The position numbers and the translations under genes were made by a program. A DNA stretch of 60,253 nucleotides, the filler included. It is 4 parts of 4 records of this genome, joined end to end, with 100 filler letters (N's around TTAATTAATTAA, not from the genome) between each part and the next. Parts side by side here need not be neighbours in the genome. Positions count along the whole stretch, not along the records: positions 1 to 21,709 come from SRR2962707_2753; 3 more parts are not named here. One strand, given 5' to 3'. Positions 3,430 to 7,276 of the stretch are shown here, piece after piece. The first letter of the stretch is position 1. Every line of letters begins with the position of its first letter. Under the pieces are notes generated by a model. That model saw nothing but the letters and a program-made list of their open reading frames with translations. It had not been told where the DNA came from and did no database searches.

Positions 3430-5562
3430 CTAGTGAAGCACGGCCAAAAGCAGCAGCGCGATGATATTTGTGATTTTTATCATTGGATTGACAGCGGGAC
3501 CGGCAGTGTCCTTGTAGGGATCGCCCACGGTATCACCGGTGACCGAGGCTTTGTGAGCTTCCGATCCCTTGTAATGGGTTTGCCCGGTGGAATCGGTGAA
3601 CCCGTCTTCAAAGCTCTTTTTGGCGTTGTCCCAGGCGCCGCCGCCCGCCGTCATGGAAATGGCGACGAACAGGCCCGTGACGATCACGCCCAAAAGCATG
3701 GCGCCCAGCGCTGCAAAAGCCGCCGCCTTGCCGGCGATGAGAAGGATTACCCCGAACACGACCAGCGGCGAGAGCACCGGAAGCAGCGAGGGAACGATCA
3801 TTTCCTTTATCGCGGCCTTGGTCAGCATATCGACGGCCCTGCCATAGTCGGGCTTTTCGGTGCCCTCCATGATGCCGGGCTTTTCGGCAAACTGCCGACG
3901 CACCTCGACCACCACCGATTGGGCGGCGCGACCGACTGCAGTCATGGACATGCCGCTGAACAGGAACGGCAACAGCCCACCAAACAGAAGCCCGACAACC
4001 ACGTAGGGGTCGGCCAGCGAGAAGCTGATTTGCCCGACACCGAAATAGAAGTCGCCTTCGACCGCCTCGCCGATGAAATAGGCAAGGTCCTGGGTGTAGG
4101 CGGCAAACAGCACCAATGCGCCCAGACCCGCCGAACCGATGGCATAGCCCTTGGTCACGGCCTTTGTGGTGTTGCCCACAGCATCGAGCGCGTCGGTGTT
4201 CTTGCGCACTTCGTCGGGCAGGCCCGCCATTTCGGCAATGCCGCCGGCATTGTCGGTCACCGGTCCGAAAGCGTCGAGCGCCACGATCATGCCGGCCAGT
4301 GCCAGCATGGTGACCACGGCAACCCCGATGCCGAACAGGCCGGCGAGGGAATAGGTGACGATGATGCCCGCGATGATGACAAGGGCGGGCAGGGCTGTCG
4401 ATTCAAGCGACACGGCGAGCCCCTGGATCACATTGGTGCCGTGGCCGGTAATCGAGGCTTCGGCGATCGAATTGACCGGGCGCCGGCCCGTTCCGGTATA
4501 GTATTCGGTGATCCAGATGATGAGCCCGGTGATGACCAGTCCGGCCACACCGCAGCCATAGAGTGCCCATGGGGTGAAAGTGATATCGCCCACGGCAATG
4601 GATCGGCTCATGTCGCCGAAGATCAGCCACATGACTGGAACAAGGGCGATCAGCGAGAGCACGCCGGTGGCAAGTACGCCCTTGTAGAGCGCGCCCATGA
4701 TGTTGCCCGAAGCGCCCAGCTTCACGAAATAGGTCCCGGCAATCGAGGTCAGGACGCACACCCCGCCAATGGCGAGGGGCAAGACCATGCCGATCAGTTT
4801 GAGATCGACCGGCAGGATGATCGCGGCGAGCACCATTGTGGCGACGATGGTCACCACATAGGTTTCGAACAGGTCGGCGGCCATGCCGGCGCAATCGCCG
4901 ACATTGTCGCCGACATTGTCGGCGATGGTTGCAGGATTGCGCGGATCGTCCTCGGGGATACCCGCTTCGACCTTGCCCACCATGTCGCCGCCCACGTCGG
5001 CACCCTTGGTGAAGATGCCGCCGCCCAGCCGGGCAAAAATGGAAATCAGCGAAGCGCCGAAGCCCAGAGCGACAAGAGCGTCGATGACGGTCCGGTCAGT
5101 CGCTTCGAACCCGATGCCCAAAAGAACGAGGAAATAGACTGTGACACCCAACAGACCAAGACCGGCAACCAGCAGTCCGGTCACGGCGCCCGATTTGAAC
5201 GCCAGGTCGAGCCCGCCGGCCAGCGAGGTGGTCGCCGCCTGGGCAACGCGCACATTGGCGCGCACCGAGACGTGCATGCCAATGAACCCTGCAGCCCCGG
5301 AAAGTACCGCGCCGATCAGAAATCCTATGGCCGCGTACATGCCGAGCAGCAGCCAGGCGATGACAAGGATAACGGCGCCGACAATGGCGATGGTTGTGTA
5401 CTGGCGCTTGAGATAGGCGGTGGCGCCTTCGCGCACCGCGTTTGAGATTTCCTGCATGCGGGCACTGCCGGCATCGGCGGCCAGAAGCGTACGTGTGGTC
5501 ACGATGCCATAGACGACCGAAAGGACGCCGCAGGCAATAATCAGCCATAAGGCCAAAGTCAT
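3430..5562 (-). CDS. hppA: Membrane H+-translocating pyrophosphatase, K+-independent type
   Basis: Motifs [40 protein letters not shown] has Lys at the K+-independence signature position. ATG at 5562 follows GAGGGG. Confidence 0.95.
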
Positions 5563-5849
5563 AGTGGTATTCCCCTCACTTTGCGTCCGGATCGGCATGT
5601 CGAGAGGCTCGGCACGAGGCTGGCACTCCGATGCGGTCCGGTCTACTTCCCTTCTTGCACCGCCGCCAAAATTTCCTCTCCCCTGGCGACAGCAAAGACC
5701 CGCACTTTACTGCGGCCAGAATGGAGGATGGCCCAAGATCAGCGCAGAGGCAATCCTCTATTCTTGCGCTCTATTTTAGTCAGTATTGCTGGCTTATTTA
5801 TGCTTACCGGCTTGAAATGCAATGATGTTCGCCGGGCATTACTGTTGAC

Positions 5850-6170
5850 CTATCGGTCCGCCAGGCTTTCCAATGCAGTGCGGAGCACGCCGGGTTCTCC
5901 CCGGGCCAGAATCACCTTGGTTCGGCTGGTCTGGCCGCTGGAAAGGGACAGGGCGGATTTGGGAAGGGTAAGGGCCTTGGCCAGAAGGGAGATGACGGCG
6001 CTATTGGCCGCGCCCTTATCGGGCGGGGCACAGACCCGAACGGCCAGCGCGCAGCTTCCATCGGCGCGGGTTTGCGCGCCCTCGAGCCTGTCTGCACTGG
6101 CATTGGGGGTGACGCGCAGCGTGATCCGCGCGCCGTCGGGAACGAGCGTGTAAAAGGAGGGGCTGCTCAC
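5850..6170 (-). CDS. DUF167/YggU family protein
   Basis: LRVTPNAS...VRVCAPPDKGAAN...LSSGQTSRTK. The GTG start overlaps the yggT stop (GTGA). Confidence 0.85.
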   Translation of the reverse strand: MSSPSFYTLVPDGARITLRVTPNASADRLEGAQTRADGSCALAVRVCAPPDKGAANSAVISLLAKALTLPKSALSLSSGQTSRTKVILARGEPGVLRTALESLADR

Positions 6171-6472
6171 AGCCCCTGCATGGCAACCTGACGCATGAGC
6201 GGATAGAGGATCACCAGCCGGATGAAGTAGATCGTCAGAAACAGGACGATCGGGGAGATATCGAGTCCGCCGAAATTGGGCAGCACCCGCCGGATGGGCG
6301 CCAGCAACGGGTTGGTCAACTGCCAGAGCATATTGGCGACCGTCGCGACGAACTGGTTGGACATGTTGAGAATGTTGAAGGCCAAAAGCCAGCTCATGAT
6401 CACCTGGGCGATCATGATGAAGATGACAAGGCTCAAGACCACGTCGATGAATTGTAAAAGCCCAAACAGCAT
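6167..6472 (-). CDS. yggT: YggT family membrane protein
   Basis: MSWLLAFNILN...LTNPLLAPIRRVLPNFGGLDISPIV. Confidence 0.92.
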   Translation of the reverse strand: MLFGLLQFIDVVLSLVIFIMIAQVIMSWLLAFNILNMSNQFVATVANMLWQLTNPLLAPIRRVLPNFGGLDISPIVLFLTIYFIRLVILYPLMRQVAMQGL

Positions 6473-6568
6473 TGGCGGTCCCTTTATGCAATCGGTTCTA
6501 TATAGATCGTGAAAAGCCTTATGGAAATGGGTGTGGCGATCTGATGGCCGCGCCCTGTCCCAGCAAAG

Positions 6569-6650
6569 AAAAAAGGCCCGCCTCAATTACGCGAGGTTCG
6601 GGCCTTTGCAAGAGTTTGCCCGGTACGCAACACACAAAGATCCGGACAGG
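6569..6650 (-). ncRNA. Candidate sigma54-dependent small RNA (~82 nt)
   Basis: Starts ~12 nt below a -24/-12 element. 5' hairpin UGUCCGG/CCGGGCA with an 18-nt U/G-rich loop, then terminator AAGGCCCG..CGGGCCUU plus U-tract. No credible ORF. Ends are inferred. Confidence 0.6.
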
Positions 6651-6660
6651 GGCATGCAAG

Positions 6661-6676
6661 GCACAGACCGTGCCAA
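6661..6676 (-). promoter_or_regulatory. sigma54 (-24/-12) promoter
   Basis: Minus strand TTGGCACGGTCTGTGC has GG-N10-GC spacing with a perfect TGGCACG. Confidence 0.75.
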
Positions 6677-6719
6677 AAACCGGTTACTCAATATGGGGCG
6701 CGTCGCGTGCGATTTGTCT

Positions 6720-6732
6720 CAATATGTTGAGA
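6720..6732 (-). promoter_or_regulatory. IHF-like site between enhancer and sigma54 promoter
   Basis: TCTCAACATATTG against consensus WATCAANNNNTTR, one mismatch. Confidence 0.45.
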
Positions 6733-6759
6733 TCGGGCACAAGAACGCATTTTCAGCTC

Positions 6760-6795
6760 TTGCATTTTGCAACGCATGAGAATTGCAAAATGCAA
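6760..6795. promoter_or_regulatory. Tandem enhancer boxes TTGCA-W3-TGCAA (bEBP upstream activating sequence)
   Basis: TTGCATTTTGCAA at 6760-6772 and TTGCAAAATGCAA at 6783-6795, about 115-140 bp upstream of the inferred TSS. Confidence 0.6.
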
Positions 6796-6799
6796 AATT

Positions 6800-7276
6800 T
6801 CACGCGGTTTCGTCAGCTTCAGGATTGACGTCCGGCGGGGTGGTGGGCCGCTTTGCCTGGTTGCGCAGGATGGTGCGTTGACGCGATGAGACCCCGATCA
6901 ACTCGGCGACGCGCCAGACCATGTTGTCTTCAAGCTCATGATTGGTGTCGTCGGCAAACACCACCTGCCACATCATCCTGATGATCTCGATTTTTTCGGG
7001 CTCTTCGAGTTGGGCGAGCTTTGAGGTGAACTGGTAGAAATCGACGGCGTCGCGGTCGCGCCGACGGGCCTCGGCAATAATGCGCTTCACTTCGGATTCG
7101 TCGAGGCCGTAATAGTCCTTGAGGGCGTTGGCGATGGCCTTGGCTTCAATGGGGCTCGCGGTGCCGTCGACCGATGCGAGATGGACCAGCAAAGCGGCCA
7201 CCGCAAGGCGCGGCTCGGTCGGCTGGGCTGTGCCCTTTTCGGGTTGGCGAAACAGCTTTGCCAGAGAATCGAACAT
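6800..7276 (-). CDS. TerB-family (tellurite resistance-like) protein
   Basis: AVAALLVHLASVDG...DFYQFTS...MMWQVVFADD..HELEDNMVWRVAELIGV; start taken at MFDSLAKLF. Confidence 0.85.
   Translation of the reverse strand: MFDSLAKLFRQPEKGTAQPTEPRLAVAALLVHLASVDGTASPIEAKAIANALKDYYGLDESEVKRIIAEARRRDRDAVDFYQFTSKLAQLEEPEKIEIIRMMWQVVFADDTNHELEDNMVWRVAELIGVSSRQRTILRNQAKRPTTPPDVNPEADETA

Follow-up and report, generated by a model that had tools for sequence, protein, structure and literature searches.

The stretch of DNA analysed here (the window, 60,253 nucleotides) was joined from four records, positions 1 to 21,709 coming from SRR2962707_2753; coordinates refer to the whole 60-kb window, and all parts of the locus are read on its minus strand. 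The intergenic region between terB and yggT of this Pelagibacterium sequence holds a predicted small RNA (sRNA) gene with a sigma-54 promoter and two upstream enhancer boxes of the LuxO type (Table 1). We consider it fairly likely that this gene encodes an RNA of about 85 nt that is transcribed with sigma-54, is driven by a LuxO-type bacterial enhancer-binding protein (bEBP) and acts through a hairpin loop. A preliminary description of the window had placed the palindromes, a site resembling that of integration host factor (IHF), the promoter, the RNA and the terminator; all of these coordinates proved to be correct, and its interpretation was in large part borne out.

Table 1. Parts of the locus and its two flanking genes
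Feature	Position in window	Strand	Details
Distal enhancer box TTGCATTTTGCAA	6795-6783	-	exact TTGCA-W3-TGCAA; centre at about -140
Proximal enhancer box TTGCAAAATGCAA	6772-6760	-	exact TTGCA-W3-TGCAA; centre at about -117
IHF-like site TCTCAACATATTG	6732-6720	-	one mismatch to WATCAANNNNTTR; about -83 to -71
Sigma-54 (-24/-12) promoter TTGGCACGGTCTGTGC	6676-6661	-	TGGCACG-N5-TGC; GG and GC at sigma-54 spacing
Predicted small RNA, about 85 nt	~6649/6650 to 6565	-	start predicted; end at U tract
5' hairpin P1	6617..6648	-	7 bp, UGUCCGG/CCGGGCA; 18-nt loop AUCUUUGUGUGUUGCGUA
Intrinsic terminator	6565..6604	-	outer helix GGCCCG/CGGGCC, inner helix CCUC/GAGG, then UUUUUUCUUU
yggT	6167..6472 (ATG 6472)	-	Pfam YGGT, 69.3 bits; next gene downstream of the RNA
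terB-family gene	6800..7270 (stop at 6800)	-	Pfam TerB, 107.3 bits; upstream neighbour

The centres of the two boxes are 23 bp apart, which is about two helical turns. The start of the RNA was set about 12 nt after the GC of the -12 element. The 3' half of the P1 loop, GUGUUGCGUA (6633-6624), contains the motif GU-NN-UGCGUA, which recurs throughout the family. The terminator stem is G+C-rich and bulged, and its U tract stops 93 nt before the ATG of yggT; a simple terminator scan, which needs an unbulged stem, did not flag it.

Taken singly, the motifs are near chance level in the window. With one mismatch allowed, the box pattern was observed 3 times against 3.06 expected and the sigma-54 pattern 8 times against 7.04 expected, and the predicted fold of the RNA is weak (z = -1.74; 12 of 200 shuffled sequences folded equally well), while TGGCAC-N6-TGC occurs once in the 60 kb. 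The case for the locus therefore relies on comparison across genomes and not on single-motif statistics, and it is the combination of the motifs, together with their conservation, that goes beyond chance. Genome-wide results were taken from the nearest genome, G001, which is 3.8 Mb in size and 98% identical at the locus. The exact TTGCANNNTGCAA pattern was found there at three places, two of which are this pair, and its reversed-pattern control gave none; the third place (C1:73092-73104, TTGCAGTCTGCAA) has a centre that is not A/T. A box followed after 55-85 nt by TGGCAC-N6-TGC occurs a single time in G001, again with none for the reversed pattern. Further copies of box plus promoter, as anticipated in the preliminary description, were thus absent from G001 in the whole-genome scan with this composite pattern.

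Conservation and structure of the RNA

The locus was compared by blastn with 151 genomes of the family, and a match was obtained in all 18 genomes of the same genus. The results showed that the best-conserved stretch is the RNA body and not its flanks, with conservation beginning at the predicted +1 and stopping at the U tract, and that the order of the parts is identical in the aligned loci of the genus. More distant copies were found with a covariance model of the RNA alone (R1), which scores neither promoter nor boxes. Of 12 further loci inspected, 10 carry CTGGCAC-N6-TGC, with 8-10 nt between its end and the RNA, and a strict regular expression detected one or more boxes in 9. A second model comprising promoter plus RNA (R2), built from an alignment named A2, gave matches at E <= 1e-3 in 100 of the 151 genomes of the family, spread over 19 of 24 genera; TGGCAC-N6-TGC is invariant in all 28 sequences of A2, which come from 10 genera. 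When a box was called in relatives at 8 or more of the 10 specified bases, all 30 loci examined from 9 genera had at least one box and 28 had two or more, centred between -98 and -158 with a spacing of 19-23 bp; a distal-type box at -126 to -158 was seen in 28 of the 30. By our tally, about 66 of the 87 box-like windows among 90,695 positions fall in the 30 upstream stretches of 140 nt.

The IHF site, also proposed in the preliminary description, stood up in part. It is present in the window with one mismatch, and sites with no more than one mismatch occur in 7 of the 30 loci (0.8 expected from shuffled sequences); six of these belong to close Pelagibacterium relatives and have the same offset; in the seventh, L117, the match is to the opposite strand. 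The other genera show 2-4 mismatches. The site is thus plausible locally, among close relatives, and is not a feature of the family.

Outside the family, in a sample of 151 genomes of the order, R2 matched G249 and G289, which belong to one family, and G257, which belongs to another. Boxes and promoter are present in all three (the promoter of G289 reads TGGCAT), and their hairpins have the same loop motif on stems of entirely different sequence. A composite pattern of box, promoter and GU-NN-UGCGUA, for which about seven chance matches were estimated in public genomes, gave at least 120 stretches there, and R2 confirmed 74 of the 80 among them that were listed with titles. Genera among the matches listed are Devosia, Pelagibacterium, Maritalea, Cucumibacter, Pseudovibrio, Cohaesibacter, Anderseniella, Tepidamorphus and Bauldia, beside Aestuariivirgaceae, unclassified alphaproteobacterial metagenome-assembled genomes and a few probable chance matches such as Microbacterium. 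Five Pseudovibrio loci (L161, L162, L175, L200 and L218) have the RNA in tandem: about 200 nt downstream of the first copy lies another one, identical in the loop motif, which has a degenerate promoter (TGGCAA-N6-AGC) and scores 21-23 bits with R2. Each tandem copy has its own terminator.

Hairpins with the same loop motif (...UUUUGCGUACCGG...) and a terminator were also seen without sigma-54 promoter or boxes, namely at L072 (G074), L074 (G019) and L150 (G223); the last of these is a fourth match from the sample of the order and lies directly after the stop codon of a gene. These three may be paralogous RNAs under other control, or forms derived from 3' untranslated regions.

The secondary structure was evaluated on an alignment of 77 distinct sequences (A4). 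Compensatory double changes were found for 7 of 7 pairs of P1, with 93% of cells paired, and for 10 of 10 pairs of the terminator, with 82.5% paired; over all cells 86.9% are paired, against 62.3% in shuffled alignments. The covariation score is 0.641, compared with 0.227 +/- 0.011 after shuffling and at most 0.191 when the partner strand was slid. Stem variants include CCGG/CCGG, GCUGAG/CUCAGC, GCUGAU/AUCAGC and CUGGC/GCCAG. The pattern with which the wider loci of A4 were found contained the loop motif; in A2, which was gathered without it, the core UGCGUA is present in 27 of 28 sequences and reads UGCAUA in G017. Conservation of boxes, promoter, loop and stems, with covariation of the stems, thus extends from the genus to the family and to further families, as the preliminary description had led one to expect. 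Since the linker between hairpin and terminator varies among relatives by insertions or deletions of 1, 3, 4 and 5 nt, the RNA is non-coding. A small open reading frame (ORF) was considered and rejected, because the sole ORF there begins before the RNA is predicted to start and the linker changes are not restricted to multiples of three.

Searches of Rfam gave no family match, Qrr included, in positions 6300-7000 of the window (E <= 10), apart from weak microRNA-like matches at the boxes, and none to the RNA in ten diverse members (E <= 0.1). The RNA is therefore neither Qrr nor a curated Rhizobiales sRNA, in agreement with the preliminary description, in which it was not recognised as either. 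A near-match to Atu_C9 at L147 (E 0.038; 21.5 bits against a gathering threshold of 40) is not to the RNA but to sequence about 500 nt downstream of it. The RNA appears to be a new, conserved and structured family that has apparently not been described.

A LuxO-like activator and its co-occurrence with the RNA

The preliminary description had stated that the activator is not in the window, and indeed no bEBP gene is encoded in the 60 kb. G001 contains rpoN (223.5 bits) and nine strong bEBP genes, among which NtrC, FlbD and NtrX are named by NCBIfam models over their cut-offs. One of the nine, a protein of 470 aa on contig 25 (L077:4131-5543, minus strand), has the LuxO model NF041946 as its best NCBIfam model, with 431.8 bits against 323 for the next family, and LuxO (5ep0) as its best relative in the PDB, with 314 bits against 257 for NtrC1. 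Its helix-turn-helix (HTH) is identical to residues 409-430 of Vibrio cholerae LuxO at 16 of 22 positions, and the recognition helix, SPSTIYRK, is fully identical; the letters of the V. cholerae protein were derived from the names of the alanine mutants in PMC11407668. Of 11 residues which that paper gives as needed for binding to the qrr4 promoter, nine are identical in the protein of G001, V420 being replaced by Ile and L429 by Arg. The helix SPSTIYRK is absent from the other eight bEBPs of G001, whereas, among 34 orthologs drawn from four families, 33 have it. Among named proteins, one of Pelagibacterium flavum is the closest (93%), and many of the orthologs already bear the automatic JGI label 'repressor protein LuxO'.

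Canonical receivers of G001 served as the reference for aligning the receiver domains. Glu replaces the phospho-acceptor Asp, and Leu or Met the conserved Lys, in 11 Pelagibacterium genomes, G001 among them, whereas the Asp is kept in the other 7 of the 18 Pelagibacterium genomes sampled, with the Lys kept in six of these seven (Arg in G065), and both residues are kept in all 14 other loci where the site could be aligned. Of the culturable species, P. halotolerans belongs to the Asp type and P. flavum and P. luteolum to the Glu type. The Pfam Response_reg score of the G001 protein is 23.4 bits, below the gathering threshold of 30.2. Asp-to-Glu exchange in LuxO (D61E, earlier numbered D47E) gives a constitutively active phosphomimetic, according to the accessible text of PMC4878744. 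Because the Asp has become Glu and the Lys is lost, the activator of this clade is probably either permanently active or subject to some other control. Genomes of the Glu clade still have an intact RNA, boxes and promoter, which suggests that the module would work there without phosphorylation.

The LuxO-like gene is accompanied by an EAL-domain gene, DUF1905 and glycosyltransferases. No kinase and no histidine phosphotransferase was seen among these neighbours, and no search was aimed at LuxU or receptors. The EAL gene (L077:5695-6921, plus strand, contig 25 of G001) is divergent from the LuxO-like gene and encodes 408 aa; the EAL domain, a cyclic di-GMP phosphodiesterase domain, is C-terminal (68.1 bits), and the N-terminal 150 residues have no domain match. 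The pair is kept in 27 of 34 loci, comprising 18 of 18 in Pelagibacterium and 9 of 12 in other Devosiaceae, and is absent from three Devosia loci and four loci outside the family.

To relate the activator to the RNA, orthologs were defined as full-length matches at E <= 1e-90, the paralogs matching over the ATPase alone at about 1e-65 to 1e-75 (a bimodal distribution), and a genome was called RNA-positive on a full-length R2 match at E <= 1e-6. Of the 151 family genomes, 80 have both, 41 neither, 27 the bEBP only and 3 the RNA only. An ortholog is thus present in 80 of 83 RNA-positive genomes, and the RNA is missing from 41 of the 44 genomes without an ortholog. One RNA-only genome, G147, has a LuxO-type HTH in a frame of 66 aa; none was found in the other two, G008 (92% complete) and G011 (71%). 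In the largest mostly negative genus (g18) the RNA is present in 2 of 12 bEBP-positive and 0 of 28 bEBP-negative genomes. Outside the family, an ortholog is present in 3 of 3 RNA-positive genomes and in 1 of 2 RNA-negative controls. A bEBP with a LuxO-type HTH, the comparison suggested by the preliminary description, was thus found in G001, and it co-occurs with the RNA. Two explanations are offered for the bEBP-only genomes (G016, G018, G020, G113, G165 and 22 more): an RNA too divergent for the model, or a different target of the bEBP.

Proposed mechanism and alternative explanations

The motifs, their conservation, the structure of the RNA and a LuxO-like protein that has a matching helix and co-occurs with the RNA are all supported by sequence comparison. 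From these we infer the start site, the dependence on sigma-54 and on the bEBP, an action in trans and the effect of the Asp-to-Glu change. In the mechanism that we propose, a LuxO-type bEBP encoded elsewhere in the genome would bind both TTGCA-W3-TGCAA boxes, which lie some 117 and 140 bp upstream, and, via DNA looping that IHF perhaps helps in this clade, contact the closed complex at TGGCACG-N5-TGC. It would then open the complex using ATP, and transcription would stop at the conserved intrinsic terminator. The RNA would present the invariant GU-NN-UGCGUA loop on its covarying stem and act through this loop on mRNAs or on a protein. Most Devosiaceae keep a phosphorylatable receiver, and the RNA output should therefore follow a phosphorelay in them, whereas in the Pelagibacterium sub-clade of the window, with Glu for Asp and without the Lys, the activator would probably be locked on or otherwise controlled.

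Several of our results weigh against this reading, and they are taken up here together with the explanations that they favour. The LuxO-like protein is below the equivalog cut-off of its model (431.8 against 800 bits); rpoN and the bEBP were read from G001 and not from the organism of the window; the fitting of A4 to the structure of the model favours its pairing counts; and the related genomes in the co-occurrence table are not independent of one another. The 27 of 151 genomes with the bEBP and no RNA match at E <= 1e-6 count in the same direction, as does a search of four such genomes in which the composite pattern of box and promoter was not found. The co-occurrence would also be compatible with ubiquitous bEBPs such as NtrC and NtrX, and it might therefore be asked whether the RNA is sigma-54-dependent and driven by another bEBP (NtrC, NtrX or an unnamed one), with the LuxO-like protein controlling something else. 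We regard this as rather improbable. It is favoured by the 27 genomes that have the LuxO-like gene without detected RNA and the two or three that have the RNA without the gene, and by the nine bEBPs of G001: small RNA-positive genomes keep 7-8 bEBPs, so that co-occurrence singles out none, and narrowing down the activator by way of minimal genomes was ruled out for the same reason. On the other side, the LuxO recognition helix is found solely in the LuxO-like protein and the boxes are exact copies of the LuxO consensus; it is mainly on this match of helix and site that the case for LuxO-type control is built. Moreover, the orthologs of NtrC, NtrX and FlbD are identified separately over their own cut-offs, the enteric NtrC site is a different palindrome, and one of the three exceptions has the HTH, the other two being incomplete (71% and 92%). 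It is far less probable still that the two palindromes simply serve terB as a 3' hairpin or terminator, everything else being coincidence. The boxes are mutually reverse complementary and could form a 13-bp RNA hairpin right after the terB stop codon, which the weak microRNA-like Rfam matches (E 0.9-5) reflect. No U tract follows it, however, the central triplets of the two boxes are non-complementary in many loci, and the boxes are kept at the same distance from the promoter in other families and in Devosia loci without terB upstream. The boxes therefore belong with the promoter and not with terB, and the terB hairpin reading, which the preliminary description had named among the outcomes that would refute its proposal, was rejected.

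A more serious question is whether the RNA is mainly a cis-acting leader or attenuator, so that the sigma-54 promoter would drive yggT and the genes behind it, hairpin and terminator would set the read-through, and the free RNA would be a by-product. Linkage to yggT fits such a role and counts against an independent sRNA. Within the family, the RNA is followed directly by yggT, on the same strand, in 29 of 30 loci, a contig end interrupting the remaining one; yggT also follows it in both loci of family f51 and lies no more than 500 nt away in 51 of 74 wider loci, Cohaesibacter included. The gene upstream varies: terB is there in 23 of 30 loci and absent from four of the Devosia type (g15) and three others. 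A cis role is kept alive because this linkage exceeds general synteny. RNA libraries add a further point on that side. Contigs cover the RNA in just one of three runs of one study (X2), X1 and X3 having no cover over 6517-6657, and the X2 contig, 6450-6654, crosses the terminator into yggT; depth is 40 on it and 11 upstream. At its ends it overlaps neighbouring contigs by k-1, at junctions of the assembly graph, and two strain variants are present; it is therefore uninformative on start, end and level, and cannot prove one single transcript. The terminator, for its part, is strong and its pairing has been preserved through compensatory changes, an alternative (antiterminator) pairing conserved among the loci was not seen, and the spacer between RNA and yggT is poorly conserved and varies from 64 to 244 nt. 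Pairing of the loop with the yggT leader is no better than that of shuffled loops (mean z -0.36), the Pseudovibrio tandem copies each have their own terminator, and no yggT lies within about 1.5 kb of the RNA at the f4 locus. Lastly, yggT may have a separate promoter, since an alpha-type -35/-10-like element lies 50-60 nt before its ATG in 12 of 14 loci examined with a loose pattern; a scan of E. coli type found no sigma-70 promoter for it. The covarying terminator, the variable spacer and the tandem copies support a separate sRNA gene in the comparison, and we hold a mainly cis-acting leader to be unlikely.

A few further observations concern yggT itself. A conserved CTATATAG or CTAGATA element is found about 40-45 nt before its ATG in the window (6480-6530) and in relatives, in many species with CTTGCCC about 17 nt before the CTAGATA-type element; together these may be the gene's own promoter. 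A fourth RNA library, X4, covers only part of yggT. In X2 and X3 the yggT region (6117-6479) is present in two variants with 2 and 30 differences in 363 nt and different depths, and therefore more than one related strain or species is present in these samples. Downstream of yggT on the minus strand follow a short ORF (5850-6170), which may encode a protein of the YggU/DUF167 type, and a membrane protein of 722 aa (3430-5598), which may be a proton-pumping pyrophosphatase, both judged by eye from their translations.

As to how the sRNA works, an invariant loop on a freely varying stem should be recognised by an mRNA or a protein, so that the RNA most likely acts through the loop on other molecules, by mRNA pairing or by protein binding, and would do so in trans. 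The complement of the loop was present in none of 34 bEBP leaders, in 1 of 29 yggT leaders and in 2 of 27 EAL leaders, without enrichment, and an exact 10-mer search in three genomes gave six non-self sites, about as many as the reversed control and none of them orthologous; these results, too, count against the reading as set out above. They would suit an RNA whose hairpin loop is a protein-binding site, that is, a decoy or sponge and not a base-pairing seed, and a short invariant loop motif on a sequence-free stem is what a protein-recognised hairpin would look like. The target search was, however, a shallow one of exact 6- and 10-mers in three genomes, no candidate protein is known, and base-pairing sRNAs often have loop seeds of 6-8 nt. 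A decoy seems to us a minority possibility within the action through the loop.

Comparison with known systems

LuxO with its Qrr RNAs is the textbook case of a response regulator that acts through small RNAs, and it has been regarded as a speciality of Vibrio. By title and abstract, we found no report of a LuxO/Qrr-type sigma-54 sRNA module in alphaproteobacteria, and no text pairing LuxO with Devosia or Pseudovibrio was found in a search that left subscription-only texts and supplements outside. One Caulobacter paper combining the terms LuxO, alphaproteobacteria, sigma-54 and sRNA has LuxO in its reference list only. A survey of 2004 contains a reciprocal-best-hit LuxO 'ortholog' in Bradyrhizobium, from which no conclusions are drawn in the accessible part of the text (PMC524169). 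We take this to be an RNA family not described before, and an extension of a known regulatory design to new hosts, in which a LuxO-like bEBP is very likely the activator.

In at least four families of Hyphomicrobiales, an activator of the LuxO type, agreeing with LuxO in recognition helix and DNA site, would serve a different RNA family, and a group with almost no sRNA biology gains a conserved sRNA family for which a covariance model and a regulatory handle are at hand. The pair of bEBP and enhancer appears to have been kept while the RNA output was exchanged, which would make it a natural experiment, and the natural phosphomimetic receiver may help to ask how regulators escape from phosphorelay control. 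The module's link to yggT can be tested; this membrane protein is widespread, and its function is poorly understood. More tentatively, and as a possibility that we would not yet call probable, an old module of LuxO, site and sRNA might be common to the Vibrionaceae and many marine and soil Hyphomicrobiales; its RNA output would have been swapped for an unrelated family tied to yggT, most lineages would report on a phosphorelay, possibly one linked to cell density or to cyclic di-GMP in view of the EAL gene beside the activator gene, and one Pelagibacterium lineage would have been hard-wired on by a natural Asp-to-Glu change.

Other sRNAs under a bEBP and sigma-54 are GlmY with GlrR, CrcZ with CbrB and NrsZ with NtrC. 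The gene described here is like them in having a -24/-12 promoter with activator sites upstream; it is unlike them in its activator and in the consensus of the sites, and none of their Rfam models matches it. With the Rhizobiales sRNAs of Rfam (the alpha-r families and Atu_C9) it shares an alphaproteobacterial host, an intergenic position and an intrinsic terminator, again without an Rfam match to the RNA. The differences from the Vibrio module are several. The host is an alphaproteobacterium, the RNA gene adjoins yggT and not the gene of the activator, and the activator is under the LuxO equivalog cut-off; the RNA, which folds into one hairpin plus terminator, matches no Qrr model in Rfam, and the motif test on bEBP leaders (loop complement in 0 of 34) gave no feedback site. 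The likeness lies in the design. In Vibrio, the consensus TTGCAW3TGCAA is given at -89 to -120 of the qrr genes in the accessible part of PMC11443567, and there, as here, one or two such sites about 90-140 bp upstream of a -24/-12 promoter serve a short, terminated sRNA (PMC11443567). The activator is closest to LuxO among curated families and solved structures and has an identical recognition helix, and in one genus, Pseudovibrio, the RNA is multi-copy, as the qrr genes are. The Asp-to-Glu exchange at the phosphorylation site of the Pelagibacterium protein, finally, is like that of the constitutive LuxO allele reported in the accessible text of PMC4878744.

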